NCBI GenBank assembly: GCA_964397845.1
Contig: CAYNKW010000004.1
Location: 1 to 44,088 of the forward strand
Direction of reading: 5' to 3'
From: an uncultured Anaerolineae bacterium
GTDB lineage: Bacteria > Chloroflexota > Anaerolineae > CAYNKW01
Length of the DNA: 44,088 nucleotides
Of the stretch, positions 1-43,785 are shown piece after piece. Each line of letters opens with the position of its first letter. Position 1 is the stretch's first letter. The notes below the pieces were generated by a model. It did not search any database. It saw only the letters and a program-made list of their open reading frames with translations, and was not told where the DNA came from. The translations under genes and the position numbers were made by a program.

Positions 1-1
1 T

Positions 2-169: not shown

Positions 170-304
170 TACGCTGCGAAGTTACCTGATAGCTCCCCCA
201 TCTGTGTACCGGTCAGCGATTGGTGGCTAATGCATGGTTGATGTGTGGTAGCGAGCAGCAAGTTTGACAACATACAGCTTTTCCAGTCTCCCACGGAGGA
301 ATGA

Positions 305-1558: not shown

Positions 1559-1573
1559 GTCTTGGAGGTTAAC

Positions 1574-8243: not shown

Positions 8244-8303
8244 TCTCTCTTCACTGTTATCAAATATCTCTTTAGCTATGCCTGGTGATTCCCCTTCAAA
8301 AAC

Positions 8304-24673: not shown

Positions 24674-24837
24674 CTCGAATCAGCGTTTATCGGCTATCAA
24701 CCGGCCGTATAGGCCCGTATCTGCTGCTACCTCGTCGTCTATCTTGTTGAGGCAGCGTGCAATCCACGAGGCAAATCCTGCAAGGTCCCGGCTTGGTGGC
24801 CGGGGCCCCATCATATCGGGGAAGCGAAAGGGCGGCC

Positions 24838-25851: not shown

Positions 25852-26116
25852 CATAGCAATTCTAACCGCTTTCTAACCAATTACACACGGAAACCCTGCT
25901 TTTTTCAGTCATAATGCCAGGAGATGGCGGCCTGTCTGCCTAGTACTACAACGTGGCTTTGTTCCAGAAACCCGTTTTCTGGCGCTTGCAACCTCAATCC
26001 GCCAGCGTTGCAGAGCCGATTTACCAACCAGAGCAGCCCCAGGGCAGGAGAAAATGGATTTCTTTCAAGTCGTTATGTCAAAATAATGTCGTAGTACCAG
26101 GAAAGCGAGGGCAATT

Positions 26117-27247
26117 GTGACCCTACCAGGATATTGGCGCTACAACCAGGAACGCTATGCCATGATCGGTCACTCCTGCGCACATTGTGGGACGCGTTTC
26201 TTGGCACCTCGATTGGTCTGCCCGAATTGCCGTCACGAGGTGACCCAACTGACGCAACACATCTTTCCCACCCTGCAAGTTCAGGCGTCCGCCGATGCTC
26301 AAGAGCCTGCATCTGTGGTCACTGTAATCATTCCGTCTTACGACGCCGCTGCTACCATCCAGGCTACCCTTTCCTCGATCGTGGCCCAAGACTTTGATGA
26401 ACCCTATGAAGTGTTCGTGGTAGATAGTTCTAGCGACGAAACGCCAGCGATCATCGCGCAAGAGTTTCCCCAGGTGCACCTCATTCACCGCGAGAAGAAA
26501 ACTGACCCCGGCACCGCCCGCAACCTGGCCATTGCCCGCGCGTGTGGAGAGATCATTGCCTGCCTGGATGCTGACTGCGTCGCCCCCACCGAATGGTTGC
26601 AGCGGATGGTCGCCGCGCAACGGGCAGGCCACCCTATCGTAGGCGGCGGCATAGAGAACGGCAATCCGGAGAAGATTCTGGCCTGGGCCAGTTTCTTGGG
26701 CGAGTTCCGCGAGTTCATCGCCGTCGGCAAACCTCGCCTGATGCGTCACCTGCCTACCTGCAACATCTCGTACCAGCGCTCGATTTTTTCCCGCTTTGGT
26801 GGGTTTCCCACATCGTTTTATCCACAGGAAGATCTGCTTTTTCATTGGCGACTGGAACAGCAAGGCGTCCCCATCTGGTTCGAGCCAGACATTCAGGTGA
26901 AACACATCCATCGAGCCGAGTGGCGGCCCTATCTGCAACACCAGCGCCGCATTGGACATATTACCGCTCAAGTGCTGGAATTAACCGGCGAGGAAGGAGC
27001 CTTCCTGGCTCGATCGCCGCTGTTGGCGCTGCTGGCGATTCCTTTCTTGCCTCTGGTCAAGTTCTTGCGCACCGTGAGCCACTTTGCCAGTTGGCGACCA
27101 GGGGTCATCCGGCAGCACTGGCCCGCGTTGCCGTTCTTATTGCTGGGGTTGTACGCCTGGTCCATCGGTTTCGTCGCCGGGGCGTGGGACGATCCCCTGC
27201 GGGAATCACTGTCCCCTCTCACCGTCGAGCAGAGTGTGTCGCAGTAG
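26117..27247 (+). CDS. GT2 glycosyltransferase with an N-terminal CxxC..CxxC zinc-ribbon extension
   Basis: GTG 26117 follows GAGGG (alternative ATG at 26162). CAHCGTRFLAPRLVCPNCRHE, then VTVIIPSYDAAATIQATLSSIVAQ .. VFVVDSSSDET .. CLDADC. The C-terminus is hydrophobic. Confidence 0.8.
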   Translation: MTLPGYWRYNQERYAMIGHSCAHCGTRFLAPRLVCPNCRHEVTQLTQHIFPTLQVQASADAQEPASVVTVIIPSYDAAATIQATLSSIVAQDFDEPYEVFVVDSSSDETPAIIAQEFPQVHLIHREKKTDPGTARNLAIARACGEIIACLDADCVAPTEWLQRMVAAQRAGHPIVGGGIENGNPEKILAWASFLGEFREFIAVGKPRLMRHLPTCNISYQRSIFSRFGGFPTSFYPQEDLLFHWRLEQQGVPIWFEPDIQVKHIHRAEWRPYLQHQRRIGHITAQVLELTGEEGAFLARSPLLALLAIPFLPLVKFLRTVSHFASWRPGVIRQHWPALPFLLLGLYAWSIGFVAGAWDDPLRESLSPLTVEQSVSQ

Positions 27248-27288
27248 AGTGAGCGAAGAATCTCGAGGGAGACCCTTTCCCCCTACAT

Positions 27289-29337: not shown

Positions 29338-29462
29338 ACTTAACAGGGGGTGTTTGTCTGAAGAGGGCATGTGAGACCACCAGGGTATGTCCGCTCTTGG
29401 AATGATTCGATCACTGGCAGACTTTGTGGTCAGTCGGGATCACTAGATAGGACCAGCCGAGC

Positions 29463-31991
29463 ATGAAGCAAGCAGCAATTATTGTGACCTCAATTTTGGC
29501 ACTGGCGGCGTGCATCGCTGAGGTGCCCGCTGTTCAGACCAATTACGACTTTGTAGCCGACTTTGACGCCGTGGTTGCCCAACCGCCACCAGCCTACGGA
29601 ACCAATCTCTGGTGGACCGATGAGGAGGCCGCGCTGTGGTCGTCACGCTGGGCTGAACTGGGGCCTTCGCTGGTGCGTGTGCCCATCTCTCAGGCGATAG
29701 TCGAGCCTGTAAACGACAACGGCGACCCCAATGTGATCAACTGGGACGGTTTTTTGCTGGATACACCCATCAACGTGTCAAGTATCAGTCGCACGGTCAC
29801 TTATCAAGCCTGGTTCCAGGCCCTGCGTGATCAACCGACCCTGAACATCTTGATTTACTTTGCGTATCTGGCACCCTGGCTAAGCGATAACTCTCCTCAT
29901 CCCGGATCCCCATTTCCATTCGACGTCGCTCCCCACCCGCCTAACGACCTGGCTGAATACCGTGAGTTCATTGAGGCTGTGCTGCGCTACCTGGTCGAGA
30001 CGCTGGATTTTCCGCCGGAGCGGATCATGGTTGAGGCGATGAATGAGCCAGACCTGGGCTGCGGCGTCGATCCGGTGGTGGCATGTTTTTGGCAGGATTG
30101 GACAATGGATGACATCGCCGCCGTCGTTCGTGTCACCCACGAGGCGATCCAGTCTGTCAATGCCGAGATCCCCTTCATAGGTCTGGCCGAGTGCCTCGGT
30201 ACGAGCATTGTGCGCGACCTACTGAATAACTACCCAGAGGGAGCCTATCTGGATGGGCTAACATACCATTACTATTCGCCTTCAGGATATAACCTGAACG
30301 CGGTTCTGAGTCGGGCGGCAGCGCTGGCCCCCTTTGGCTTGCCGATCTACCTGGACGAGTATGGTAGTCGGCAGTATCAGAGTGAGGGTATTGATGGGGC
30401 TCTGTGGCATAGCTGGGCTCTGGCAACCTTGTGGGAGGCGGGCATCGCGCCGCTGCAACATCCTATCAGCGAGTGGCCGCTGGCGGGTGAACCTTACAAC
30501 AGCATGGGCCTCTTTAGGGACTGGCGTGGGGACTGGGAGCGCAAACCCGCGTACTGGGTCTACGCCAACTTCTTTCACCTTGTGGGCGGCGGCGAGATCA
30601 TCTCTCACACCGCTCCTTCTGGGGTGGACGTCCTGACGGCACGTCGGGTCGTCACCGACGAGGTCCAAGTAACCTTCTGGGTAGTCAACCGAGGAGGTAC
30701 AACACTGGCCGACCGGTCCTTCGCAGTCTACAATTTTCCCTGGCAGGAGGCGACGTTACGTGTCTACGACAACCTGGTCGGCTCAACCCCGGTACTGACG
30801 ACGACGGTCAGTGGGTCCCCCCTGGTCTTTAACGCTACCTTGCCAGCGCGTAGCTCCCGCACCTTTGTCCTAAGTGAAGGGCAATCACACGGTTCGCTCG
30901 ACCGCGTTGTGCTTGCTCCTGACTTGGCCACGCGCATGGCAGGGCGGACCATATCCTACACCCTCATCGCTTACGATATCTACGACAACGACTGGGATGT
31001 GACAGCTGACGGTGTTTACACCGTTACTCCTGACGCTGGCGGTGACTGGGTGGGGAATGTCTACACCACTGAACTGGCAGGCACGTGGACAGTGACGGCG
31101 ACATACGGCGGCGAGGTTGACACCGCTACGCTGACTGTGAACCGTGCTCCTCTGGACTACGTGGACCTGACGCCGGCCACGGCTATGCAGATGGCAGGGC
31201 AGTCTATCTCCTACACGTTGACTGCCTACGATACTTACAGCAACGACTGGGATGTCACCATCTCCGGCACTTACACGATCGAGCAGGCCGCTGGCGGCGA
31301 CTGGACGGGCAATATTTACACTACCGAAGTGGCCGGTACTTGGGTTGTCACCGGGAGCTATGGCGGCGAGAGTGACACAGCAATGCTGACAGTATTGTTG
31401 GCAGATCTGAATCATATTGTCATCTCACCCACCTCCGCTATCATCATGGCTGGGGAGGCGCAGACCTATACGTCAGAGGCGTTTGACGCTCAACACAACA
31501 GTCTGGGTGACGTGGCGACGTTGACGACATTCATTATCTCACTCCCTGCGGGCGGCGCATGGAGCGGCAACGTGTACACATCTGAGGTAGCAGGCACATG
31601 GATAGTGACTGGGGCCTACGGCAGCGAGGTTGACACCGCTACACTAACGGTGGACCACGCCCTCCTGGACTATGTGGACTTGGTGCCTGCCGCAGCTATA
31701 CGTATGGCAGGGCAGTCGATTTCTTATACGTTGACCGCCTACGACGCCTACGGTAACGACTGGGATGTCACTGCCTCCGGCGTTTACATGATTGAACAGG
31801 GTGCTGGTGGTCACTGGAAGGGCAACGTTTACACTACCGAGGTGACCGGTACCTGGACCGTGACCGGCACTTGGACCGCGGCCGGTACCTGTACCCATAG
31901 GAGGGAGAGTGACACTGCCATCTTGACAGTTCGGATGCCGGCAGCCCATGTGTATTTGCCGCTTATCCTGGGGAAGGATATGTTGCCTTAG
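29463..31991 (+). CDS. Secreted (possibly lipoprotein) clan GH-A-like hydrolase + four tandem Ig-like repeats + YLPLILGK tail
   Basis: Signal peptide with LAAC. VEAMNEPD and IYLDEYGS are candidate catalytic Glu motifs. Four ~85-aa repeats. Ends LTVRMPAAHVYLPLILGKDMLP*. Confidence 0.75.
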   Translation: MKQAAIIVTSILALAACIAEVPAVQTNYDFVADFDAVVAQPPPAYGTNLWWTDEEAALWSSRWAELGPSLVRVPISQAIVEPVNDNGDPNVINWDGFLLDTPINVSSISRTVTYQAWFQALRDQPTLNILIYFAYLAPWLSDNSPHPGSPFPFDVAPHPPNDLAEYREFIEAVLRYLVETLDFPPERIMVEAMNEPDLGCGVDPVVACFWQDWTMDDIAAVVRVTHEAIQSVNAEIPFIGLAECLGTSIVRDLLNNYPEGAYLDGLTYHYYSPSGYNLNAVLSRAAALAPFGLPIYLDEYGSRQYQSEGIDGALWHSWALATLWEAGIAPLQHPISEWPLAGEPYNSMGLFRDWRGDWERKPAYWVYANFFHLVGGGEIISHTAPSGVDVLTARRVVTDEVQVTFWVVNRGGTTLADRSFAVYNFPWQEATLRVYDNLVGSTPVLTTTVSGSPLVFNATLPARSSRTFVLSEGQSHGSLDRVVLAPDLATRMAGRTISYTLIAYDIYDNDWDVTADGVYTVTPDAGGDWVGNVYTTELAGTWTVTATYGGEVDTATLTVNRAPLDYVDLTPATAMQMAGQSISYTLTAYDTYSNDWDVTISGTYTIEQAAGGDWTGNIYTTEVAGTWVVTGSYGGESDTAMLTVLLADLNHIVISPTSAIIMAGEAQTYTSEAFDAQHNSLGDVATLTTFIISLPAGGAWSGNVYTSEVAGTWIVTGAYGSEVDTATLTVDHALLDYVDLVPAAAIRMAGQSISYTLTAYDAYGNDWDVTASGVYMIEQGAGGHWKGNVYTTEVTGTWTVTGTWTAAGTCTHRRESDTAILTVRMPAAHVYLPLILGKDMLP
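30897..31935 (+). repeat. Four tandem ~255-nt coding repeats (Ig-like/Big-type domains) within the 29463 gene
   Basis: Each unit reads LD(Y/R)V(D/V)L.P....MAG(Q/R)(S/T)ISYTL.AYD.Y.NDWDVT..G.Y......GG.W.GN(V/I)YTTE(V/L)AGTW.VT..YGGE.DTA.LTV. Units 2 and 4 are also visibly similar at the nucleotide level. Confidence 0.85.
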
Positions 31992-32065
31992 TCACGCGGC
32001 TACTTATAGCGCTAGGTTCTGTGCCCTGCGTGATCAGCCGAACTCGAACGTTAGGAGATGTTGAC

Positions 32066-33649
32066 GTGAGAAAAGTACTCGTAGTCGGGTTGGACGGAGC
32101 ATCGTGGCGGTTACTGGATCCGTGGATCGAGAAGGGGCATCTACCCACTCTTGCCAGACTGGTGCGGCAGGGTGCCTATGGTACCCTGTTGAGCACAATA
32201 CCTTGTCGCACCAGCCCCGCACTTCCCGCCTTTTACACTGGAAAGAACCCTGGTGCTCTGGGCGTTTTTGATTTCACCATGTCGGACGGAACTCTTGTGA
32301 AGTCGCAGGACATCAAGTACAAAGCCATTTGGGATGTGCTGGGAGAGTTCGAGTACAAATCCTGCATCGTGAACTTGAGCACCATCTACCCCCCGCAGGC
32401 GATCAATGGCGTTATGGTATCTGGGGTCTGTCCATGCAAGGACTCCGAGTACACGTACCCTAAAGCGGTGCGAGCCAAAACCCAGGGTTTCCACATCGGA
32501 AAAAGCAAACTAAAAGCGATTTGGACTGGCCTTCGAGACGGTGACCGGTCGGCAGTTGAGAAACTCAAAACGCTTCTCCAGCGACGCTACTGGATTTTCA
32601 AAGAACTCGCTTTGGAGGGTGACTTTGACTTCCTGTTGCTCTGGATCAGCCAGACTGATGTTATTCAACACTTTTGCTGGGGCAAACCAACCCTAATGCT
32701 GGATTTTTTCCAGGAGGTGGACAGAGTTCTGGCCGACATGTTGGTTTCCTTGCCGGATCACGTTCTGCTGATCATGTCCGACCATGGGTTCAATGGTTTT
32801 TACGACAAGGCACTTCACACCAACACCTGGCTAATGCAGCAAGGCTATCTCAAAATGAAAGGTGGCAGGCTGGGGAACTGGGTCTGGCCCTGGGCTTACT
32901 CCTTGGCCAGCAAGCTTACGTCGAGCAAGCGCTTGTTGTCACTTTGGAAGCTGCTAATCGGAGGGCGTAAACAGACAGCAGCAAGACCGGCCACTCAATC
33001 TCGTCTCGCTCACAACTTCTACCGCAGTCTGCCCGGCGTGGATTGGAAAAGGAGCATCGCCTTTCTCGACCAGGATTGGGGCATCCGGATTCTGACCGAG
33101 AATGTCGCACCAGGGACGTACGACCGCATCATAACCGAGATCACAGGGAAGCTGAGGGTGCTCCAGGATGGGCGCGGCGAGAGGGTGATTAAAGGTGTTT
33201 GGCGCAGGGAAGAGCTATACGCGGGCAAGTATCTGAATGAGATTCCAGACATTGTTTTTCTGGCCACCAATGGATACGTGCCCAAGTGCGCTATAGTGGG
33301 AAAGGTCTTCCTCCGTGCGTCACCCTCACCAAAGATGGCCAGCCACAACTTTGCCAGAGATGGCATCTTGGCCGCCTACGGCCTGGGTATTGCCCAGGGG
33401 CGATGTATCACCGGCGCCGAAATTCTCGACCTGGCTCCGACTATTCTTCACATCATGGATATTGATGTTCCTGTTGGCATGGATGGCAGGGTGTTGGGGG
33501 AGCTGTTTGAGGAGGGATCTGAGATGGATAGGGAGGTCCGCTATCAGGATCTTGAGCTCTCCAAAAGGGATACCGCCTCGGCGGCGCTGCCTGAAGAGGA
33601 AGAGCAGGTCCTAAAGGAACGGTTGAGGGGGCTGGGCTATATAGACTGA
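32066..33649 (+). CDS. Alkaline-phosphatase superfamily protein (type I phosphodiesterase/nucleotide pyrophosphatase-like)
   Basis: GTG 32066, 8 nt after AGGAG. VLVVGLDGASWRLLDPWIEKGHLPTLARL .. IPCRTSPALPAFYTGKNPG .. LLIMSDHGF. Confidence 0.75.
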   Translation: MRKVLVVGLDGASWRLLDPWIEKGHLPTLARLVRQGAYGTLLSTIPCRTSPALPAFYTGKNPGALGVFDFTMSDGTLVKSQDIKYKAIWDVLGEFEYKSCIVNLSTIYPPQAINGVMVSGVCPCKDSEYTYPKAVRAKTQGFHIGKSKLKAIWTGLRDGDRSAVEKLKTLLQRRYWIFKELALEGDFDFLLLWISQTDVIQHFCWGKPTLMLDFFQEVDRVLADMLVSLPDHVLLIMSDHGFNGFYDKALHTNTWLMQQGYLKMKGGRLGNWVWPWAYSLASKLTSSKRLLSLWKLLIGGRKQTAARPATQSRLAHNFYRSLPGVDWKRSIAFLDQDWGIRILTENVAPGTYDRIITEITGKLRVLQDGRGERVIKGVWRREELYAGKYLNEIPDIVFLATNGYVPKCAIVGKVFLRASPSPKMASHNFARDGILAAYGLGIAQGRCITGAEILDLAPTILHIMDIDVPVGMDGRVLGELFEEGSEMDREVRYQDLELSKRDTASAALPEEEEQVLKERLRGLGYID

Positions 33650-33704
33650 CGCTGGGTACACTCCGAGCTCATCTACCCAAGTGGAAGTCGTCAAGAGGGG
33701 ATGG

Positions 33705-34790
33705 ATGTCAATTAAGAAACTTGTGCGTCTTCTTGCCTGGCGTCACTGGGGTCTGATCCGCTACAACTCGGTCTGGCAGAACGTGGCGGCGCTGTTCTAC
33801 GTCGGTCTGGCGCGTCAGTGGTTCAGCATGGACTACGTCCGCGACATGGGAGTGTTCCTTGTCCTCAGTATGACCTTAACGGCCTATGGCTATCTGATCA
33901 ATGACCTGGCCGACGTCGAACTCGACCGGCTGGCCGGCAAACCAAACGCATTTCACGGGATGAGCCGCACAAAAGCGTCGCAGGTGGTGGTGGCGGTCTT
34001 TGGCGTGATGGTGGCGTGCGGCCTGCCCTTCGCCCGCCGGCCCAATTTCCTGCCCTTGTGGATCGTCTGGGCGCTGGTGGCGACCTTCTATTCCCTGCCG
34101 CCGGTGCGTCTCAAGGAGCGCGGTGTATTGGGCTTGGTCGCCACCATCGCTGCGCAGCAGCCACTACCCGCTGCGATGGCCTTTGCTGCCCTGGGTCACC
34201 TGCGCACGTGGGGAGCGCTGGCTTTCATCGCCTACATCACCCTGCGGGGCATCTGCTCCGACGTGGGCCACCAGATGCGTGACCGGGAGCGGGATGAAGC
34301 CGCTGGTGCGACCACCTTCGCTGTCCGCCTGGGCCACGCGGCCATGACCCGCATCTACGGCCTCAGCTTGGAACTGGAGGCGCTCCTGCTGGGGGTTGTT
34401 CTCATCGTCTTGGTAGTAGACGTGCCGTCTGTCCATCTGGGGGGCTGGTCGGTCGCTCCCGCCTGGCCACTGCTGATGGCCTACCTGGTGCTGCTGTCGT
34501 TCACCCTGGGGCGTGCCTGGGTGCGGTTGGAACGTGACGAGTGGGTGGACCCTTACGATGAATCCCCTGAAGGTCCCCCACGCGACCTGCTGCACCTGAT
34601 CCACCATCCCTTCCCGACGGTCGTTCTCCCCCTCTACTTAGCCATCTGGCTGACGATCTACTATTGGCCTAATCTCATCTTCACCTTGGGGCTGGTCTTG
34701 CTGTACAGGTTGTACGATCCTGGTCGCTGGGCGGGGAGCTGGCCTATGCGGACACTGCTGGCCCGCCTGGGACAGCGGGAGAAGGTGTGA
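33705..34790 (+). CDS. UbiA-superfamily prenyltransferase (polytopic membrane protein)
   Basis: ATG 33705 after GAGGGG. First Asp-rich motif YLINDLADVELDRLAGKPN (NDxxDxxxD). Second motif QMRDRERDEAAGATTFAV. About 8-9 TM segments. Confidence 0.85.
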   Translation: MSIKKLVRLLAWRHWGLIRYNSVWQNVAALFYVGLARQWFSMDYVRDMGVFLVLSMTLTAYGYLINDLADVELDRLAGKPNAFHGMSRTKASQVVVAVFGVMVACGLPFARRPNFLPLWIVWALVATFYSLPPVRLKERGVLGLVATIAAQQPLPAAMAFAALGHLRTWGALAFIAYITLRGICSDVGHQMRDRERDEAAGATTFAVRLGHAAMTRIYGLSLELEALLLGVVLIVLVVDVPSVHLGGWSVAPAWPLLMAYLVLLSFTLGRAWVRLERDEWVDPYDESPEGPPRDLLHLIHHPFPTVVLPLYLAIWLTIYYWPNLIFTLGLVLLYRLYDPGRWAGSWPMRTLLARLGQREKV

Positions 34791-37700
34791 TGTTCGACGT
34801 CATCGTCATTGGCGCTGGGCCGGCCGGCTCGTCGGCCGCTTGCGAGATTGCCCGGGGGGGCTGGCGCGTCGCCCTGCTGGAACGCGGTGCGTATCCTGGC
34901 CAGCGCAATGTCTGCGGCGGAGGCATTGAGGGCGCGGACGTGGAGGAGATGGGCCTGCCGAACGACCTGATCCACAAGCGGATGGTGCGCCGCGAGCACT
35001 ACTTCCCCTGGGGCGTCACCACGCTCATTACCCCTCACGTCACTACCCTTCGGCGTGATCTGGACTGCTGGTTGGCCGAACAGGCTGTCGCCGCTGGCGC
35101 AGAACTTCTTACCCGGACCTGGGCCCGTGCTGTCGTCCGCGAGGCAACCGGGCGGGTGATGGTGACTGTCACCGACTTGACGGATCATCGCCAGATCACC
35201 CATCGTACCCGCTTGGTCGTCTTTGCCGACGGGCCGAACACGCTGGCCCCGCGTTCTGGAAACCTGGGCTTTGTCCGTGCGCCAACCACTGCTGCAGTGG
35301 GCCTGATTTACGAACTTGCCTGGCCGAACACGCTGTTGGATCACTATGAAGTTCACTTCGGAGCTTGCTTCAGCCCGTGGGGTTATGCCTGGGTCTTCCC
35401 TAAGCGCGATCTGCTCAACGTCGGCATCACCATCCTGCCCTCGCGGCGGGGCAGCCGTCATCTGGAGGCACGACTGCAAGCCTTCATTGAGAGTCGGCCC
35501 GACCTGCGCGAACGGCCGATTGTCCGCCGCGCTGGTGCTCACATTCCGGTTGTCCCGGCGGCGCGTATCTACGATGATTCGATGTTGGCCGTTGGAGATG
35601 CGGCAGGGATGGTAGAAGCGCTGACCGAAGCAGGTATCGCAAATGCCGTGGCAGGTGGTCGGCTCGCTGGCCAGGTGGCGTGTGAGGCGCTGGCAGTGGG
35701 TGATCTCTCGGCGGCCTTTCTATCGCGCTACCAGAGCCGCTGGCAGGCGACCTTCCGCTATCGAACGATTCGCTTCCAGTCGCGTCTCACCCGCGCACTC
35801 CTGCCCTTCAGCTGGCTTGATGGGAATTTCTACCCCAAAGTGATGCAAGTCCTGTTCCTGGGCGGCCAATTGAGCCGCAGGCAGAAACTGCGTCTGTTGG
35901 CCTACCCGGCGTTGAAGCCGCGCAAGCGATTGCTCTTGGGATCAGTGGGAGCGGGGGGGGCGAACCTGATGGCTGAGTTCATCTTGCATTTTGATGAGAT
36001 TGAGGAGGCCCGGCGCAACCAGGCAGGTGGCAAGGGCTACGCACTCGCCCGGCTCTGTCAGGCGGGGTTTCCCGTACCACCGGGCTTCATTGTTGCGACC
36101 GATGCCTACCGTGCCTTCGTCACCGCCAACGGCCTGGACACCCTCGTCGCCGCCGCTCTGGCAGATGACGACCCGGCGGCAGCCTCGGCACGTATGAGGC
36201 CAGCCTTCGAGGAGGTGAAAATGCCACCCGCCATCGCCGCTGCCATCCGCGATGCTTACCTGGCGCTGGGGGCGGACGAGGTGGCGGTCCGCTCCTCGGC
36301 CCTCGCCGAAGACGATGAGGCCGCTTCCTTCGCTGGCCAGTATGAGACCTCCTTGGGCATCGTCGGCTCCGACGCACTGCTGGCGGCGGTGCGCCGCTGC
36401 TGGGTCTCTCTCTGGAGCGAGCGGGCGCTGGCCTATCGCCGCTGCCTGGGTTTTAAGGGCGACGCGCCGGCAATGGCCGTCGTCGTGCAGAGGATGGTGC
36501 CTGCTGTTCAGGCTGGCGTTGCCTTTACCCTCGACCCCCTCAGCGGCCGTCGTGACGTGGTCGTCGTCGAGGCCGTCGCCGGGGGGGGCGAGGCGCTGGT
36601 AAGCGGTCGGGCCACGTTATACCGCTACGTCATCCAGCGGGGAAGTCCCTATCCAGATTCCGGGGATGGGGTGCTCGATGTTGCCCGGTTGGCGGCTGTC
36701 GTCCGCCTGGCGCAGGAGGTGGAGTCCTGGGCGGGTCAGCCCCAGGACGTGGAGTGGGCGCTGGGCGATGCCGGGCGCGTGCACCTTCTTCAGGCACGGC
36801 CGATCACCACCGCTTCAAGAAACCAGGTTTTTTCTGAAAAACCTGGTTTCTGCGAGGTTGTTACCCGCTGGACCCGCGACAACGTCGGAGAGGTGATACC
36901 GGATCCGGTCACGCCGCTCAGTTGGTCGGTGCTTGACCCCCTGGGCAACCGTTCTTTCACGGGCGTGTTGCGCCGCCTGGGCGTGGGCGATTACTCAGCC
37001 GCTGACCTGTTTGGCCGCTTCTACGGCCGGGTCTACTTCAACCAGACCTTCTTCCAGGCGATATTGGGCCACTTCTACTTCTCGCGCACCAGTTGGCAAG
37101 CCATTCCCCGGCTGGCACTGACGGCCCTGCGAGCATTCCTGTTGCTGCGCCGCCTGCCAGGGGAGAGCGAGAGAGCCATCGGAGCGATCCTGGAGTGGCG
37201 CCGCTCTGAGGAGGGGCTGAACCTGGCGGCTCTGACCCCGGCCGACGTACTGGACCGGTTGGCCGATTGGCGCCGCCTGGGCGCTGCGGCGATGGAGGTT
37301 CACTTGGCCATGACCGTGATGGGTGACTTGCTCTACCAGACGCTGGACAAACTGCTGGCCCGTTGGGGTGACGGGATGACCACCGTGGCTGCTCTGACGA
37401 CTGGACTCACGGGGGTGCGTAGCGCCGAGGCCGGTCAGGCCTTGGCCGCTCTGGCCCAACAGACTTGCCAGGATGACAATCTGCGTGCCCTGGTGCTGAC
37501 GACGACCCCTGAAGCGCTCCCGGCCCGGCTGGCCGAGACGGAGGCGGGACAGGCGATGTGGGCCCGGATCGAGGCTTTCCTGGCCAAGCACGGCCACAGC
37601 GCGGCACAAGAGTTCGAGTTGGCCACGCCTCGCTGGTGCGATTCCCCGGCGATCATCCTGAGTGCGCTCCAGGCGCAGGTGCGCGCCGGTGCGGAGAGGC

Positions 37701-38464
37701 CTGTTGCCGATCCGTCCACTGCTCGTCTGGCGGCCATCGCCCGGATCGAAAATCGGCTAGGTCCGCTGAAACGCTGGCTTTTCTGCCGCCTGTTGCATCA
37801 GGCGCAGATCTTCACCGTTGCCCGCGAGAATCTCAAGTACCATTTCGTCATCGCCCATAGTCACCTGCGCGATCTCTACCTTGCCTTGGCGGCGCATCTC
37901 GTTGCGGCCGGGCAGTTGACATGTGCAAAGGATATCTTTTTCCTGACCGCTGACGGGGTCGCGGCCCTGGTCGAGGGGAGGCTGGCGTCTGGTGAGGGCC
38001 GGGAGCGTGTAGCCGAGCGTCGCCAGGCGTGGGAGGCTGACCGAAGGGCCGTGCCGCCCTCGTCTTTCGACCAACTGACCGACGGTCGCCTGCGTCCGGT
38101 AGCGCCGTCCGTCGCGCCCGGCAGCGACGGCGGCCAGTTGCTGCGCGGATTGGCCGCCAGTCCTGGCTCATACATCGGGCAGGCTCGCGTCCTGCACACT
38201 CCAGCAGATGGCGCTGGCCTGGAACCGGGCGAGGTATTGATTGCGCCGGCCACCAGCCCTGGGTGGGCGCCCCTGCTCCTTTCGGCGGGCGCTCTGGTCA
38301 CCGAGATTGGCGGCACGTTGTCCCACGGCGCGATCATCGCCCGGGAGTATGGCCTGCCTGCCGTGCTCAACGTCGCCGACGCGACGCGCTGCATTCGCAC
38401 CGGTCAACTTGTTCATGTGGATGGATCCGCAGGCTTCGTCCGACTGCTAGAGGAAGTGACGTGA
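34790..38464 (+). CDS. Fusion protein: geranylgeranyl-reductase-family FAD oxidoreductase (aa ~1-375) + PEP-synthase/rifampin-phosphotransferase-like dikinase (ATP-grasp PPDK_N domain, ~400-aa middle domain, His-swivel PEP-utilizer domain)
   Basis: TGATG overlap with the ubiA-like stop. FDVIVIGAGPAGSSAA .. GDAAGMV; NQAGGKGYALARL .. VAVRSSALAEDDEAASFAGQYET .. VQRMV; C-terminal GLAASPGSY..GEVLIAPATSPGWAPLL..TEIGGTLSHGAIIAREYGLPAV. There is no C-terminal PEP/pyruvate TIM-barrel domain. Confidence 0.85.
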   Translation: MFDVIVIGAGPAGSSAACEIARGGWRVALLERGAYPGQRNVCGGGIEGADVEEMGLPNDLIHKRMVRREHYFPWGVTTLITPHVTTLRRDLDCWLAEQAVAAGAELLTRTWARAVVREATGRVMVTVTDLTDHRQITHRTRLVVFADGPNTLAPRSGNLGFVRAPTTAAVGLIYELAWPNTLLDHYEVHFGACFSPWGYAWVFPKRDLLNVGITILPSRRGSRHLEARLQAFIESRPDLRERPIVRRAGAHIPVVPAARIYDDSMLAVGDAAGMVEALTEAGIANAVAGGRLAGQVACEALAVGDLSAAFLSRYQSRWQATFRYRTIRFQSRLTRALLPFSWLDGNFYPKVMQVLFLGGQLSRRQKLRLLAYPALKPRKRLLLGSVGAGGANLMAEFILHFDEIEEARRNQAGGKGYALARLCQAGFPVPPGFIVATDAYRAFVTANGLDTLVAAALADDDPAAASARMRPAFEEVKMPPAIAAAIRDAYLALGADEVAVRSSALAEDDEAASFAGQYETSLGIVGSDALLAAVRRCWVSLWSERALAYRRCLGFKGDAPAMAVVVQRMVPAVQAGVAFTLDPLSGRRDVVVVEAVAGGGEALVSGRATLYRYVIQRGSPYPDSGDGVLDVARLAAVVRLAQEVESWAGQPQDVEWALGDAGRVHLLQARPITTASRNQVFSEKPGFCEVVTRWTRDNVGEVIPDPVTPLSWSVLDPLGNRSFTGVLRRLGVGDYSAADLFGRFYGRVYFNQTFFQAILGHFYFSRTSWQAIPRLALTALRAFLLLRRLPGESERAIGAILEWRRSEEGLNLAALTPADVLDRLADWRRLGAAAMEVHLAMTVMGDLLYQTLDKLLARWGDGMTTVAALTTGLTGVRSAEAGQALAALAQQTCQDDNLRALVLTTTPEALPARLAETEAGQAMWARIEAFLAKHGHSAAQEFELATPRWCDSPAIILSALQAQVRAGAERPVADPSTARLAAIARIENRLGPLKRWLFCRLLHQAQIFTVARENLKYHFVIAHSHLRDLYLALAAHLVAAGQLTCAKDIFFLTADGVAALVEGRLASGEGRERVAERRQAWEADRRAVPPSSFDQLTDGRLRPVAPSVAPGSDGGQLLRGLAASPGSYIGQARVLHTPADGAGLEPGEVLIAPATSPGWAPLLLSAGALVTEIGGTLSHGAIIAREYGLPAVLNVADATRCIRTGQLVHVDGSAGFVRLLEEVT

Positions 38465-39558
38465 GCCGCTACCCCATCGCTGCCTATCGCCAACTCTTCC
38501 CAGACAGAAGGGAGTTCGCACCCTTCGATCCGGCCGAGGATGGTGACCACTACCGGCCGGAGCCCAACTTTTTCGAGTGGTGGTACTTTGACGCTGCCTT
38601 CGAGGATGGCTCGTATCTAGTTACGACTTTACACTCGTCGTTGTATAATACTATTGATCACAAGCCGACGCTGGACTTGCGCTACTATCCGCCAGAGGGC
38701 CCTCCCGTCATCGCTAATGGCCGCTTCGATCGGACTGCGTACCGTGCCGCGCCGGATCGCTGCTGGGTAAAGATCGGTGATTGCCTGGCTACTGACGAGG
38801 GGGATCGCTACCGGCTTAGCCTGCGCCAGGGATCGTTGGCGGCTGAACTGACCTTCTGGCCGCAGTTGCCGGGCTGGAAGGCGGGCACCGGCCATCTTTT
38901 CGCTGACCCAGCCAGCGGGCATCACTTCGATTGGGCTGTGCCGCTGCCACGTGCCCGCGTCGAGGGAATGTTGACCGTCGCAGGCCAGCGGCGGGCAGTG
39001 GTCGGCAGCGGCTATCACGATCACAATTGGGGTAATCTGTATCTGCCCGCTGCCTTCAGCCATTGGACATGGGGTCGGGTGCTGGCGGGCGACTGGGTAC
39101 TCATTTTCGGCGATATCGTCGGGCGGGGGACATCGCCGGCCCACGTCACGCCGTTCATGCTGGCCCGGGACGACGAGATACTGCTGGCGACCGGCCGCAT
39201 TCACATTCACGGTGAGGAACCGGCGCAGGAGCCACGTACTGGTGCAGGCTACTTCCGTCGGTTGCGCCTGACGACGGTGGAAGGGCCGACGGTGGAACTG
39301 ACGCTGACGGCTTGTCGGACGATGGAGGCCCTCGATTTCGCTGTACCACACTTGCCTCTGGCCCGCCAACGCCACCTGCGGAGAGCAGCCGAGATCATCT
39401 TTTACCTGGCCCAGGGAAAGCCCCTCGTTGGCCGGCTGGCTGCCTGGCTGTTGGGCAAGGGCTCTTACCTGCGCTGGGAGGCCGATTATCGCCTTGACCT
39501 GCCCGATTATGGCGCCGTGGAGACAGGCCGGGCGCTGTACGAGGTGATGTTGCTGTGA
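38461..39558 (+). CDS. CrtC (hydroxyneurosporene synthase / carotenoid 1,2-hydratase)-like, AttH-like lipocalin-fold protein
   Basis: GTG 38461 overlaps the upstream TGA (GTGA). PEPNFFEWWYFDAAFEDGSYLVTTLH .. GSGYHDHNWG .. WTWGR. The ORF-track N-terminal 66 aa overlap the upstream gene and are rejected. Confidence 0.65.
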   Translation: MSRYPIAAYRQLFPDRREFAPFDPAEDGDHYRPEPNFFEWWYFDAAFEDGSYLVTTLHSSLYNTIDHKPTLDLRYYPPEGPPVIANGRFDRTAYRAAPDRCWVKIGDCLATDEGDRYRLSLRQGSLAAELTFWPQLPGWKAGTGHLFADPASGHHFDWAVPLPRARVEGMLTVAGQRRAVVGSGYHDHNWGNLYLPAAFSHWTWGRVLAGDWVLIFGDIVGRGTSPAHVTPFMLARDDEILLATGRIHIHGEEPAQEPRTGAGYFRRLRLTTVEGPTVELTLTACRTMEALDFAVPHLPLARQRHLRRAAEIIFYLAQGKPLVGRLAAWLLGKGSYLRWEADYRLDLPDYGAVETGRALYEVMLL

Positions 39559-39740
39559 TTTGAACACTCCCGTCGCCGTTTACGTCGGGCAGCAGCACCG
39601 CAACGTGCTTGACTACCTCACTGAAGCCTGTGACGCAGCTAAAAAGGCGTTACAGTTGTGTGATTTTAAGCTTAAATTCAATCTTTGCAAATAATCCAGG
39701 TTAGTTCATGGCTCAATTATAGGTATAGGAGGAGTGTATA

Positions 39741-42071
39741 ATGAAAAAAAGGATTATAATGTCACTATTGGTAGTATTGATATTAATAGCCTTTTACTGC
39801 AATTTAGCGTATGCTGATAAAAGGGATGATTTTCTCGATCGAAAAGATTTATGGTTTTTCCATTCCGCAGGAGTGGCGGATGAAGCTGAGATAATGAACG
39901 GATATGCGAAAATATTGTTATCTAATCCAAGCTCTAGTGAAGGAAGCAATTGCGGGATTGGTGAGAATCCAGGTCATTATCTAAACTTCACCTTTAGAGC
40001 AAGGATTAAAGCCCTCACCCCACTGATGCCCGGTACACACGGATGGGGATTATGGTTACAGCGTGATTGGACTGATGGGATAAACTGGGCTGCGTGGTTC
40101 ATGGAACAAAACGATCCTACAGGAGAACCAATTAACAATTTTTGGGCAGCAGCTACTATCAATGGTCCAGTAAGTACAATGCAAATGTTTAATTTGGAAG
40201 GTATCGTTAATAACCAGGAATGGCATACATACGAAATTAAAAAGACCGAAGACAGAGTTGAATTTTTCGTTGGCGGAAATCTCGTATTCCAGACAACCTC
40301 AGAAATACCAAACCGAATTATGGGAGCACGAACATGGAATGATAACTTGAATTATGAGGTGGCGGATCCTTCCAATTACTATTTTCGAGGATGGTCGGGA
40401 ACAAGTTCTCATGTTGTAGATTTTATGGAAATTTATGATGTTGAGCCCGGAATAAGCATTCCCCCTGAAGGAACGATTCTGCTAAGGGAACTACCTAATG
40501 AAATTGGTTCTGGCCAGCCACAGTATCTCTGGAAAAGTTATGAATATACTTCCCCAGGTGGAAAGACAGTAGTAATGGTAACAGCCAGAGCCGAGCAATA
40601 CATCGATGATATGAGCGATGACGATGATATTAAAATAGTCATAGATGGTATTGATTATGGATGGGATACAGACAATTCTTTTGATGGTAATACTTTAATA
40701 GGGAATAATGGAACACTTGTTTTTGTAAAAGATGAGAATCCCGGGCAGCATACGGTTCAGATTTATGGTGACATCACTCCCCTTCTCTATGATGTTACTG
40801 TTCTCGGAGTTGAAAATGGAGATATTATCTTGGAGGATATGCTCAATGAGCAAGCTCCTGGCGGTAATAATTATCTTTGGAAGGAGTACGAATTTACCAC
40901 TTCTGGGGAGGAAGAGGTAGCTATTGCAGTTTCTGCTACTGCCAACGATAATTATCGTTCTGACGACGATGATGTTCGAATAGTTGTAGATGGAGAGGAT
41001 TTTGGATGGGATACTCATGGATCTTTCGATGGTGATGAGCTCTACGGAGAAGCACGACTTCTTGTAATAAGGCGGAATTTATCACAAGGTAGCCATCTAT
41101 TACAAATATATGCCGATGAAACCCCAACTCTCCATGGTGTTGTCATATATGGGGCTACGCCAACGGCGACTTTGACTCCTACACCAACGGCCACGTCTAC
41201 CAACACCCCGACGCCGACGGCGACCCCGACAGACATACCGACGGCGACGCTCACGCCGACTGACACGCCAACGCCAATGGCGACGGCAACCGAGACACCG
41301 ACGGCGACGCCCACCAATACACCGACACCTACGGCGACCGCAACCGACACGCCAACAGCGATTGCAACCGAGACACTGACGCCGACAGCAACCCCGATCG
41401 ACACACTGACGCCGACGGCCACGCCCCCCGACACGCTGACACCGACGAGCACGCCGACAGACACACCGATGGCGACGCCCACACCGACTGACACACCAAC
41501 CGCCACGGCCACGCCGACCGACACACCGACGCCGACGGCGAGTGCGACGCCGACCCCGACCCCCACGCCGACCCCGGCCGACGTGATCGTGGACAACACA
41601 GATCCTGGGTTTTCGGTGATTGGTTCCTGGCTCACCTACTCCGGCTCCATCCATCCCCACTATGGAGCTGACTTTCGCTACGACGAGGCCGGGACGGGTG
41701 GCGAGTGGGCCACATTTGTCCCGGACCTTCCCAAGGCGGCCCGCTACGAGGTCTTCATCTGGTGGGGCACCGCTCCCACCGGTGCGACCAACGCTCCCTA
41801 CACGGTTCATCACCTGGGCGGGGAGACGACCGTGCGGGTCAATGTACGCGGGCCTATCGGAGGGGGAGGGGTCTGGTACAGCCTGGGAACCTATGACTTT
41901 GCTGCCGGGACGGCGGGCAGCGTCGTGATCAGCGACGACGCCGACGGCTACGTCGTCGCCGACGCCGTGCGCTTCCTGGAGGCCAGCTCCACGTCGCCCC
42001 AAACTGGCTTCACGGCTCCTCTCTGGTCATTCCTACGCTGGAGTCTCCTGCCCCCGGGGCATTTGAGGTAG
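39741..42071 (+). CDS. Secreted multidomain protein: ConA/LamG-like domain, two tandem ~116-aa domains, ~140-aa Thr/Pro linker, golvesin-C-terminal-like carbohydrate-binding domain
   Basis: AGGAGG before the ATG. Signal peptide [49 protein letters not shown] (ConA-like). C-terminal [55 protein letters not shown]. Confidence 0.8.
41157..41576 (+). repeat. Low-complexity coding repeat (Thr-Pro-Thr-Ala/Asp linker; ACN CCN ACN GCN periodicity)
   Basis: Translated [40 protein letters not shown]...[13 protein letters not shown]. Long antisense ORFs here are artefacts. Confidence 0.9.
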
Positions 42072-42237
42072 GAGAAGCAGGAAAGGCAACCGAGATGGCC
42101 GGTCGGGCGCTCTTTTTCCCCAGTTACCTGGGTAGCCGCAGGCAATCTTTTGGATGCCACCGCTCGAATTGCGGATGGACAAATAATAAAGTAGACGGCG
42201 ACTCCGGTATTGTAATCCTGCCACAGGAAAATAGGGT

Positions 42238-43785
42238 ATGAAAGATAAAATGTATGCACCAAAAGCCAAGGAAACTATTAGAAGTCTTGTAGGCCCGAGT
42301 AAACCCGATGAAAGCCTTTCAAAGAAAGTTGTTAAGGGCGGTTTTTGGGTATTCACATTAAGAGGGTTCAGTCATTTATTTGGCATAGCCAGGCTTATGA
42401 TTCTGGCGAGAATTCTGGCGCCCTCAGATTTCGGATTGATGGGAACAGCACTGTTGGTAATGGCAACCTTAGAGGCTTTCTCGCAGACAGGATTTCAGCC
42501 GGCTCTAGTTCAAAAGAAAGAAGACATAAAAGAATACCTCAATACAGCCTGGACAGTTTTGATTTTACGGGGGATTATTCTATTTGCCATTTTATATTTT
42601 GTTGCACCCTATGCAGCAAACTTTTTTAACGAACCAGCGGCGAAGAGTATAATTCGAGTTAGCGGATTTTCAATCCTACTTCAGGCATTTGCTAATATCG
42701 GCATCATCTATTTATACAAAGAATTAGAATTTAACAAACAATTTGTTTATGAATCTAGTGGCATATTCACCGACTTTCTTGTTGCTACTTTTGCTGCTTT
42801 TACATTGAAAAGTGTCTGGGCTCTTGTGTTTGGGTCATTAGCTGGAAATCTTGTAAGGTGCATCGTAAGTTACATAATACATCCATACAAACCGCGCCTT
42901 AATTTGGAATTAGGTAAGACAAGAGAGTTATTCGGTTATGGTAAGTGGATTTTGGGTTCGAGGATACTGGTTTTTACAGGTGCACAGATCGATAAAATTT
43001 GTGTTGGAAGATTGCTTGGTGCAGCAAGTCTTGGCTTTTATGGAATGGCATATCAAATCTCAGACATACCGGCCACTGAAATTACCTACGTAATTGGAAG
43101 GGTTGCATTCCCGGCCTATTCAAAAATCCAAGATCACCGAGTCAGGTTGCAGCAAGCCTATTTTCAAATAACGAGACTAACAATCGCAATTTCTGTTCCC
43201 ATTGCGATAGGAGTAGTCTTTTTGGCTTCAGACTTCACAAGGATATTTCTAGGAGAAAAGTGGTTACCGATGGTACCAGCAATGCAACTTTTTGCTGGAG
43301 CGGGATTGATCAAGTCTATTGTCTCTACGGGAGGCCCTTTATTTGCTGGTAGTGGACGCCCGAATTTTGGATTCTACATACAACTTATTAGAGGCTTAAT
43401 AATGATAGTCGGTATCTATCCATTAACGATTCATATGGGAATTCCAGGAGCAGCTCTATGTGTAATTCTGAGTGTGGTGGGAATGTTTATTATTTGGTAT
43501 CCATTGTCGCAAAATATTGCTCAAGCATCTTGGGATAAATATGCTAACACCCTTGGGCTTCCTTTGTTCAGTTCGTTATTTATGGCAGGAGGTATATATC
43601 TATCCAGATCATACTGGAATCCAATTCAGCAGCCTCTGATTCTTGCTATGTCAGTTTTCATCGGAATAAGTGTAATCAGTATTTTAACCTACATAGCAGT
43701 TATGTATATCTTGCAATTGTACTATCACGATTTTGACATTGTTAGTGACATTAGATTAGTATACAAATATTTAGTGGTAAAATAG
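42238..43785 (+). CDS. wzx: Wzx-type polysaccharide flippase (MOP superfamily, polysaccharide biosynthesis protein)
   Basis: 515 aa with about 12-14 TM segments. N-terminal ..VKGGFWVFTLRGFSHLFGIARLMILARILAPSDFGLMG is typical of Polysacc_synt proteins. Low GC (19/60 in the line starting at 42541). Confidence 0.8.
   Translation: MKDKMYAPKAKETIRSLVGPSKPDESLSKKVVKGGFWVFTLRGFSHLFGIARLMILARILAPSDFGLMGTALLVMATLEAFSQTGFQPALVQKKEDIKEYLNTAWTVLILRGIILFAILYFVAPYAANFFNEPAAKSIIRVSGFSILLQAFANIGIIYLYKELEFNKQFVYESSGIFTDFLVATFAAFTLKSVWALVFGSLAGNLVRCIVSYIIHPYKPRLNLELGKTRELFGYGKWILGSRILVFTGAQIDKICVGRLLGAASLGFYGMAYQISDIPATEITYVIGRVAFPAYSKIQDHRVRLQQAYFQITRLTIAISVPIAIGVVFLASDFTRIFLGEKWLPMVPAMQLFAGAGLIKSIVSTGGPLFAGSGRPNFGFYIQLIRGLIMIVGIYPLTIHMGIPGAALCVILSVVGMFIIWYPLSQNIAQASWDKYANTLGLPLFSSLFMAGGIYLSRSYWNPIQQPLILAMSVFIGISVISILTYIAVMYILQLYYHDFDIVSDIRLVYKYLVVK

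Follow-up and report, generated by a model that had tools for sequence, protein, structure and literature searches.

A geranylgeranyl-reductase-like flavoprotein fused to a rifampin-phosphotransferase-like dikinase within a conserved UbiA-linked cassette of an Anaerolineae glycan locus

The fused reading frame and its domains

We analysed a stretch of 44,088 nucleotides from an uncultured Anaerolineae bacterium (assembly GCA_964397845.1, contig CAYNKW010000004.1, positions 1 to 44,088 of the forward strand; hereafter the window), in which a single open reading frame (ORF) joins a geranylgeranyl reductase (GGR)-like flavoprotein to a dikinase of the rifampin phosphotransferase (Rph) type. The ORF lies on the + strand and runs from a GTG at 34787 to a stop at 38464, 1225 codons when counted from the GTG. 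From the ATG at 34790 it encodes 1224 amino acids (aa), with no stop inside according to the ORF listing of the window. Its parts are as follows.

34790–35914, + strand: GGR-family flavoprotein domain, aa 1–375 (TIGR02032; alignment to 3oz2)
35915–35968, + strand: linker KPRKRLLLGSVGAGGANL, aa 376–393, 18 aa, including a run of eight G (G8) at 35953–35960
35969–36811, + strand: ATP-grasp nucleotide-binding domain, aa 394–674 (PPDK_N), beginning at the ancestral dikinase ATG
36854–38053, + strand: central helical substrate-binding domain of the Rph type, aa 689–1088 (PF27448 Rph_4th, DSSP, Foldseek)
38054–38461, + strand: C-terminal phosphohistidine swivel domain, aa 1089–1224 (PF00391, E = 1.2e-21)

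Pfam placed PPDK_N at aa 410–616 (E = 1.3e-69) and the PEP-utilizers swivel (PF00391) at aa 1145–1215; the Rph_4th assignment comes from precomputed annotation on an identical protein. The catalytic His1179 (codon at 38324–38326) lies 46 residues before the C terminus within the motif GGTLSHGAIIAREYG (aa 1174–1188). The initial annotation, made from the DNA letters without database searches, had proposed one uninterrupted 1224-aa frame (34790–38464) in which a GGR-like flavoprotein is followed by a PPDK_N/swivel-His dikinase starting near nucleotide 35969, with a largely helical middle region and the catalytic His on a C-terminal swivel. The analysis bears this out throughout: the ORF listing gives the same frame, Pfam, NCBIfam and the 3oz2 alignment give the same families, the dikinase has its own Met (MAEFILHF, aa 394) at nucleotide 35969, and the middle region is helical in an AlphaFold2 model.

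The flavoprotein half passed the family threshold of TIGR02032 (GG-red-SF; 181.4 bits against a cut-off of 158.8, aa 2–296) and was also matched by PF22578 (GGR_cat). The motifs that define this family, from the TaGGR and SaGGR structures, are GxGxxG, the Cys in CG(E/G)G, YxWxFP and GDAAG. The domain aligned end to end with the Thermoplasma GGR 3oz2 (aa 2–328, E = 6.5e-25) and keeps its motifs, with GxGxxG at aa 8–13, Cys42 in CGGG, GYAWVFP at aa 198–204 and VGDAAG at aa 268–273. It fell below all equivalog cut-offs (BchP/ChlP, 142.8 bits against 343; digeranylgeranylglycerophospholipid (DGGGPL) reductases, 82–93 against 580–780). Reduction of isoprenoid C=C bonds by this domain would be consistent with its context, UbiA and, in relatives, a polyprenyl synthase.

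For the dikinase half (aa 394–1224), an AlphaFold2 model built with 49 homologues reached a mean pLDDT (predicted local distance difference test) of 89.9. In dikinase numbering, it consists of a confidently modelled ATP-grasp part (1–281), a low-confidence hinge (282–295), a mostly helical part (~296–695) and a beta/alpha swivel (699–826). In Foldseek the model matched Listeria Rph (5hv1) over its whole length (E = 5.2e-42), whereas structures of phosphoenolpyruvate (PEP) synthase (PEPS) and of PPDK matched through the ATP-grasp and His domains only, with TM-scores of at most 0.30. Pfam gave no match to PF02896, and no PEP/pyruvate TIM barrel appeared in the AlphaFold2/Foldseek comparison. Pfam domain order and the full-length 5hv1 match thus agree with the Rph layout proposed in the initial annotation, as opposed to that of PEP synthase or PPDK, and the cryptic PEP/pyruvate barrel that would have spoken against it is not seen in the structure model.

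Alignment placed the first phosphotransfer site of the Listeria enzyme (Rph-Lm; Lys22, Arg117 and Thr136) at K415, R501 and T520 in fusion numbering, the second site (Arg666, Glu667 and Lys670) at R1012, E1013 and K1016, and the phosphate carrier His825 at H1179, a His that is invariant in 49 homologues. All of these residues are essential in Rph-Lm (PMC4844700). Given the conserved layout and residues, the expected chemistry is ATP + R-OH -> AMP + Pi + R-O-P. The segment that forms the substrate arms in Rph (dikinase aa 283–510) was left unaligned to Rph by phmmer, and the bulk composition of the middle domain (47% AILMFWV, like the other domains) is uninformative on the pocket. The models for Rph, for PigC and RedH, and for the 'PEP synthase' group PRK06241 scored 354–428 bits against cut-offs of 866–1350; scores this far under equivalog cut-offs indicate membership of the superfamily only, not Rph orthology.

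The junction and the age of the fusion

GGR homology stops at ..LLAYPALK (aa 369–376), and the linker that comes next, KPRKRLLLGSVGAGGANL, is the onetime 3' tail of the GGR gene. The join lies inside a G-rich stretch, with the G8 run ending 8 nucleotides 5' of the dikinase ATG. When the run was shortened in silico to G7, the GGR frame stopped at codon 393 (..AGGRT, then stop) and a TGATG overlap gave two genes, the same arrangement as at the UbiA/GGR junction (34788–34792). When it was lengthened to G9, the GGR frame stopped at codon 396, again giving two overlapping genes.

The exact 1224-aa protein was found on 14 contigs examined, from JGI and ENA assemblies. We compared the junction DNA in five contigs from five samples and two assembly sources (L083–L087), which differ in length and ends and carry 0–2 single-nucleotide polymorphisms elsewhere; the G8 was identical in all five. 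Further G8 (36581) and G7 (34854) runs within the ORF leave the frame undisturbed. None of these five contigs shows the separating stop or frameshift that would have spoken against the initial annotation. Their agreement makes a mistake in assembly improbable, and a one-off artefact at the G8 is largely ruled out by this identity together with the 14 contigs. We are confident that the fusion is genuine in this population.

Outside this lineage, the two halves are mostly separate. The proteins closest to the C-terminal two thirds of the fusion (P0001–P0013) are stand-alone, with ~780–850 aa, 56–75% identity and 63–68% query coverage. The closest related contig, L001, has the same order as the window (Phosphodiest, UbiA, GGR, dikinase, AttH-like), with a GGR of 395 aa and a dikinase of 848 aa encoded by separate genes that overlap by 26 nucleotides in different frames. 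Across L001, L092, the P0011 contig and L097, GGR and dikinase genes overlap by 4–29 nucleotides in different frames, and in L095 they are separated by a gap of ~11 nucleotides. Orthologous GGR clusters (~45 at >=49% identity) all measure 361–419 aa, except for a few truncated fragments. Overall, in orthologous loci GGR and dikinase are separate in different frames, or there is a UbiA–GGR fusion, a decayed GGR or none.

One stand-alone GGR, P0228 (85% identity), ends in a homologous tail, KPRERLLLGSAGAGDG followed by a stop. Its final DG-stop equals the G9-frame reading of the window (..PDG, then stop; GAT GGC TGA overlapping ATG GCT GAG), which suggests that the GGR came into frame with the dikinase through a small indel within the G-rich tract. 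A degenerate pattern run against metagenome contigs did not recover the junction DNA of P0228; it was too loose and returned 120 chance loci, 0 with GGR, dikinase or UbiA. An exhaustive HMMER scan of 1.84 billion representatives with aa 25–1224 as the query returned stand-alone dikinases as top matches with one exception, P0098. As the close matches are all unfused, the fusion is inferred to be very young and lineage-specific, and on these comparisons it appears to be a very recent frame change on the scale of one nucleotide, confined to one lineage.

Both halves look functional. Where orthologues show 95% conservation or more, the window departs from the consensus in 1 of 86 columns for the GGR (41 orthologues) and in 2 of 115 for the dikinase, no more than is usual for an orthologue (medians 2 and 3). 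A promoter/terminator scan of 26000–42300 found none above chance.

A further contig, L100 (Logan contig of SRR3085585, positions 1–3797), is 100% identical to the window over ~2.6 kb, up to mid-GGR. Beyond ~2.6 kb it is 80–87% identical and has an L001-like unfused junction, making it a strain chimera or a recombinant within GGR. A 383-aa GGR with 96% identity (P0069) was considered as a near-identical unfused strain and set aside, its contig L100 being chimeric or recombinant.

The conserved cassette and its setting

Two genes adjoin the fusion directly.

33705–34790, + strand: UbiA-family prenyltransferase, 361 aa by gene calls, ORF from 33681 (PF01040, E = 1.1e-15)
38461–39558, + strand: AttH/CrtC-like lipocalin-fold protein, 365 aa (PF07143, E = 2.6e-5)

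The TGA stop of UbiA overlaps the ATG of the fusion by 1 nucleotide (TGATG), and the GTG start of the AttH-like gene overlaps the stop of the fusion by 4 nucleotides (GTGA). The UbiA protein carries the Asp-rich motifs N74DxxDxxxD82 and D194..D201xxxD205, invariant in 11 orthologues, and a profile of these orthologues found chlorophyll synthase (E = 5.7e-9) and digeranylgeranylglyceryl phosphate (DGGGP) synthase (E = 0.011) in the PDB. Both of these enzymes use C20 substrates. The AttH-like protein matched PF07143 with 25.4 bits against a cut-off of 22.5, and its orthologue profile found 2ich ('putative AttH', E = 1.6e-5) and 7a0q (a CrtC-domain protein, E = 0.004) in the PDB. GC content is 63–66% in UbiA, GGR, dikinase and AttH, compared with 54–58% in the upstream neighbours and 39–51% downstream.

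UbiA lies immediately upstream of the dikinase or the GGR in every related locus whose upstream side can be seen, at dikinase identities as low as 34%; the L092 contig ends inside its GGR gene, so that its UbiA side is not visible. The AttH-like gene directly follows the dikinase in L001, L092, L006, L011, L097 and L099. The GGR is the variable element.

L001, L092, L095, the P0011 contig and L097 (46% dikinase identity): GGR a separate gene in a different frame
L002: GGR fused to UbiA, with the dikinase next (ATGA overlap)
L003: GGR decayed to a 107-aa remnant
L004, L005, L006 and L099 (42% identity): GGR absent

The remnant in L003 (2595–2915; aa 2–108, 51% identity) sits between UbiA and dikinase in an Anaerolineales metagenome-assembled genome and looks like reductase loss in progress. 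From gene order across these loci, UbiA is a stronger partner of the dikinase than the GGR, and the core is UbiA, dikinase and AttH-like protein, with the GGR as an accessory step inserted between. Frequent companions are a MOP-family flippase, a secreted glycosidase-like protein, a GT2 glycosyltransferase, an 'epimerase' of the short-chain dehydrogenase/reductase (SDR) type and RtcB, with a polyprenyl synthase in L093 and L097. In L005, UbiA and dikinase occur with no glycan genes nearby. Two distant dikinase paralogues with 30–35% identity (P0026 and P0020) are not linked to UbiA; the association with UbiA is thus specific to this clade. The cassette is one of Anaerolineae/Thermoflexia-type bacteria, and several related genomes are isolates with hydrothermal-sounding labels.

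The RtcB RNA-ligase homologue, which one would not expect among genes for lipids and glycans, lies directly by the flippase and cassette in at least four related loci, namely L001 (1078–2532), L006 (4417–5928), L099 (772–2280) and the P0011 contig, and had no match among the window ORFs scanned. Near the paralogue P0026, L088 (11678–16418) contains a set resembling a diversity-generating retroelement, with a reverse transcriptase, bAvd and targets with FGE-sulfatase domains.

The second flavoprotein–dikinase fusion, P0098, has 1245 aa and 33% identity, with a GGR-like FAD (flavin adenine dinucleotide) domain, PPDK_N, Rph_4th and PEP-utilizers. It is a singleton with no close relatives. Its flavoprotein half aligns with that of the window around the GDAAG region only, which points to an independent fusion event. 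Its locus, L093, reads GT2, radical SAM, SDR, methyltransferase, GT2, polyprenyl synthase, GH-like, UbiA, fusion, flippase and DXS-like, and the UbiA is 39% identical to that of the window. Taken together, the UbiA–GGR fusion in L002 and the GGR–dikinase fusions of the window and P0098 are what one would expect of enzymes that act one after another on a single substrate. Other N-terminal redox fusions are an SDR–dikinase of 1189 aa (P0039) and the NF004520 'sugar epimerase family protein' of 854 aa. No characterised substrate was found for the redox–dikinase fusions NF004520, P0039 and P0098.

Unusual architectures elsewhere in the Rph-like family (P0062, P0100, P0083–P0087 and P0111) include a rhodanese/YidC-domain protein with a dikinase (1377 aa), DUF116 with a dikinase (P0100, 1006 aa) and proteins of 1395–1490 aa with two swivel domains each. 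A different isoprenoid fusion, of a GGR to a polyprenyl synthase (P0065, 761 aa), is found in L091 (7001–9286); its context is lanthipeptide-like, and its neighbours encode another polyprenyl synthase, an APH kinase and a LanC-like/HopA1 protein.

The window as a whole is a glycan locus of the Wzx/Wzy type, in which Bac_transf, Wzy and Wzz/kinase occur together with flippases and several glycosyltransferases. The following genes lie around the cassette.

24757–25851, + strand: SDR / 3-beta-HSD-type 'epimerase', HpnA/OleD-like (PF01370, E = 8.5e-39)
26117–27247, + strand: GT2 glycosyltransferase (PF00535, E = 6.8e-29), membrane segments at aa 295–321 and 336–356
29463–31991, + strand: secreted protein, glycoside-hydrolase-like at the N terminus (NEP motif), with four ~90-aa tandem repeats and a signal peptide ending ..LALAAC
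32066–33649, + strand: alkaline-phosphatase-superfamily protein, Phosphodiest (PF01663, E = 5.5e-30), directly upstream of UbiA
42238–43785, + strand: MOP-family (Wzx/MurJ-like) flippase (PF13440, E = 5.8e-81)

The SDR scored 164.8 bits with TIGR03466 (HpnA), under the cut-off, and its orthologues are co-conserved with the GT2 in L004, L006, L095 and L093. The GT2 combines a Cys4 motif resembling a zinc ribbon (CAHC..x..CPNC) in its N-terminal part with two membrane helices in its C-terminal part; its orthologues travel with the cassette, at 60–64% identity in L004, L006 and L095 and 44% in L093, and it could be a lipid-phosphate glycosyltransferase. The gene at 27289–29337 encodes 682 aa, in which ~10 membrane segments are predicted and ~220 aa at the C-terminal end make up a soluble domain; it had no Pfam or NCBIfam match, and its shape is reminiscent of GT-C glycosyltransferases. 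The secreted protein (29463–31991) had no Pfam match. Its repeat follows the pattern ..SYTLTAYD.Y.NDWDVT..G.YT....GG.W.GN.YTTE.AGTW.VTG.YGGE.DTA.LTV, its N-terminal domain is conserved along with UbiA, upstream of it, in L001, L003, L006, L095 and L097, and a paralogue in L097 has a weak Glyco_hydro_cc match. The Phosphodiest protein has an orthologue (78% identical) only in L001 among related loci. Flippases of this family go with the cassette in most related loci and adjoin it in L001, the P0011 contig, L006, L093, L097 and L099.

Base composition breaks sharply along the locus. The flippase gene has 39% GC (35% at third codon positions, GC3) and the gene for a Golvesin_C protein (39741–42071) 51%, against 54–66% for the rest; positions 8001–10000, with a minus-strand gene for a PQQ-like beta-propeller protein (8304–10517), have 45%. 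These breaks suggest a mosaic or horizontally acquired glycan locus.

Proposed function, alternatives and known systems

UbiA enzymes transfer prenyl groups, and GGRs saturate the C=C bonds of prenyl chains. Enzymes of the AttH/CrtC family form tertiary alcohols by hydrating isoprene double bonds (bioRxiv 10.1101/2025.10.20.683597). Because UbiA, GGR and AttH/CrtC all act on isoprenoid chains, we propose an isoprenoid lipid as the substrate of the fusion. The membrane UbiA enzyme would move a prenyl chain from a prenyl diphosphate onto an acceptor, and the N-terminal FAD domain of the fusion would saturate C=C bonds in that chain. The ATP-grasp site would place the beta-phosphate of ATP onto His1179, releasing AMP and Pi; the swivel domain would then move to the helical domain, where the R1012/E1013/K1016 site would phosphorylate one of that lipid's hydroxyls. 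An isoprenoid lipid that is partly saturated and carries phosphate would result, to be used in flippase-dependent glycan assembly or alongside it.

We consider it probable, with some reserve, that the fusion works as a bifunctional enzyme, first saturating and then phosphorylating a UbiA-built isoprenoid lipid; our confidence in any specific substrate is far below that in this general statement. The shared, probably hydrophobic, substrate suggested by the initial annotation is independently supported by the conserved UbiA/GGR/dikinase/AttH synteny and by the position of P0098 next to UbiA and a polyprenyl synthase. We infer the identity of that substrate, the sequence of the reactions, what the product does, and that the protein is active in its fused form, not as separately made halves. 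One more specific version, which we put forward tentatively and think rather unlikely to hold in full, is that the dikinase is a hitherto unrecognised isoprenoid-lipid kinase, AMP-forming and with a swivel histidine, that together with UbiA and GGR makes the phosphate head group on a saturated isoprenoid lipid. This lipid would be either a glycan carrier resembling dolichyl or phytanyl phosphate, or an ether lipid like archaeol that is phosphorylated once prenylated. If true, the large Rph-like family would gain a physiological lipid substrate for the first time, and Chloroflexota would have a non-canonical way of making saturated isoprenoid phospholipids.

Several observations weigh against a saturating and phosphorylating fusion enzyme. 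The GGR is absent or decayed in orthologous loci, so that reduction appears accessory and the dikinase independent of a reduced substrate. The fused form occurs in one population and in the singleton P0098, and covalent coupling is thus not widely selected. A separate dikinase could still be made from the retained ATG, for which the G-run may act as ribosome-binding site. Some ENA assemblies may reuse JGI reads, leaving residual doubt on the independence of the contigs that carry the junction. Finally, the glycan-locus setting also fits a carrier-lipid or sugar-donor role, as opposed to a membrane-lipid product.

In the least unlikely of the alternatives, still an unlikely one, the cassette supplies a carrier lipid for extracytoplasmic glycosylation: the GGR would saturate a free polyprenol, the dikinase would turn it into polyprenyl phosphate, and UbiA would be a phosphoribosyltransferase of the Rv3806c/PPPRS type. 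The alkaline-phosphatase-superfamily protein would then strip the 5'-phosphate, the SDR epimerise the sugar and the MOP flippase export the lipid-linked sugar, with the protein at 27289–29337 as the GT-C enzyme. The Wzx/Wzy-type locus, the co-conservation of flippase, SDR epimerase and GT2 with the cassette, the adjacent Phosphodiest gene in the window and L001, and the polytopic architecture of the 27289–29337 protein all fit this scheme, and the gene set resembles the three-component pentofuranose pathway, which comprises a UbiA-family synthase, phosphatase, flippase, GT-C enzyme and an optional SDR epimerase (PMC11127046). However, neither the single UbiA sequence nor the 11-member profile found a phosphoribosyltransferase chain in the PDB, although a structure of Rv3806c has been reported (PMC10994848), both finding chlorophyll/DGGGP synthase instead (weak evidence, at the sequence level), and no phosphoribosyltransferase model was among the 13 NCBIfam matches of UbiA. 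A phosphoribosyltransferase assignment for UbiA is therefore unsupported by these PDB and NCBIfam comparisons. In addition, most related loci lack Phosphodiest, UbiA and dikinase stand without nearby glycan genes in L005, and polyprenyl phosphate normally comes from dephosphorylation of the diphosphate, for which a kinase is unneeded.

Quite unlikely, in our estimate, is a fusion that is artefactual, through a sequencing or assembly error in the length of the G8, or inconsequential: neutral, transient and perhaps slippage-prone, with separate GGR and dikinase still made or needed, for instance through internal initiation at the ATG at 35969 or by slippage on the G-run. One G more or less does restore an overlapping two-gene layout, the ancestral ATG is kept with the G-rich tract 8 nucleotides upstream, all orthologues are unfused, including P0228 with its 85% identity and same tail, and the mixed-strain contig L100 shows a related unfused strain co-occurring. 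Against this stand the identical G8 in five samples and two assembly sources, the other G8 and G7 runs that cause no frame problem in the same ORF, the intactness of both domains, and P0098, which as an independent fusion indicates that the fused form is viable.

We give still less credence to an ATP-dependent activating or condensing enzyme like PigC or RedH, which would make a leaving group by phosphorylating a carbonyl or hydroxyl, for bond formation with, for instance, the UbiA product, and yield no stable phosphate ester. The architecture is the same, and RedH (425 bits) and PigC (384) score at or above Rph (360). These scores are nevertheless far under the cut-offs (1350, 1300 and 999; NF052631 and NF052632 gave PigC 383.9 and RedH 425.4 bits), and neither the window nor the related loci contain pyrrole or prodiginine genes. 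A rifamycin-type resistance kinase or a true PEP synthase, with a flavoprotein fused by chance, can be practically dismissed: Listeria Rph is the closest solved structure and many homologues are labelled 'pyruvate, water dikinase', but the Rph equivalog cut-offs (NF041857 / NF000283) are not passed, with 359.8 bits against 999 for Rph and 237.8 against 1700 for RPH_KJ151292, dikinase aa 283–510 do not align to Rph by sequence, the PF02896 barrel is missing and the His is C-terminal, and the biosynthetic synteny is fixed.

Full-text searches of the literature turned up neither this architecture nor a pairing of UbiA with an Rph-like dikinase. The parts belong to known families, and with the fusion a recent homopolymer accident, the conserved cassette is the more valuable result. 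The junction itself is a clean case of gene fusion by a one-base homopolymer frame change between translationally coupled genes. Rph-like dikinases have been called a large unexplored family (PMC4844700); they are numerous and mostly annotated 'PEP synthase', with antibiotic inactivation and a few natural-product ligases as their known roles. Two independent fusions, a UbiA–GGR fusion and synteny down to 34–42% identity tie one clade to isoprenoid-lipid metabolism and lipid-linked glycan export, and give it a testable physiological role, the ATP-to-AMP phosphorylation of a UbiA-made, GGR-saturated lipid. If this is confirmed, a lipid kinase of a new kind would be added, together with a modified isoprenoid lipid that is new in Anaerolineae and Thermoflexia.

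Among characterised systems, the dikinase half shares with Rph-Lm (5hv1, 5fbs; PMC4844700) the order of ATP-grasp, helical substrate domain and swivel His and all seven residues. It differs in its low identity (21–25% only), in failing the equivalog cut-off and in substrate arms that are unalignable by sequence, as well as in its N-terminal GGR domain and in a biosynthetic cassette with UbiA, AttH and flippase in place of a resistance context. With the PigC/RedH prodiginine ligases and the PRK06241 group it has superfamily and domain order in common, with comparable HMM scores (384–427 bits), and passes none of their equivalog cut-offs. The flavonoid phosphate synthetase YvkC presumably belongs to the Rph-like family too; unlike for PigC/RedH and YvkC, there is no pyrrole or flavonoid pathway context here. 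P0039 and NF004520 likewise have an oxidoreductase N-terminal to an Rph-type dikinase, although the SDR is a different redox fold.

The GGR half resembles the Thermoplasma DGGGPL reductase 3oz2 and ChlP/BchP in passing the same family cut-off and in its FAD, Cys, YxWxFP and GDAAG motifs, and it stands beside a UbiA-family prenyltransferase as ChlP does with ChlG and archaeal GGR with DGGGP synthase. Unlike them, it is bacterial (Chloroflexota-like), fused to a dikinase and dispensable in several orthologous loci. Three-component pentofuranose systems and the mycobacterial decaprenylphosphoryl arabinose (DPA) pathway have a UbiA-family enzyme, a phosphatase-like protein, an SDR, a MOP flippase and a polytopic protein in common with the window; they contain no GGR, dikinase or AttH-like protein, and the UbiA of the window has no detectable similarity to the phosphoribosyltransferase branch. 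Eukaryotic dolichol phosphate is made by a polyprenol reductase (SRD5A3/DHRSX) and then a CTP-dependent dolichol kinase (Sec59/DOLK). That route follows the same logic of saturating and then phosphorylating a lipid that carries glycans, with unrelated enzyme families, and is an analogy only.

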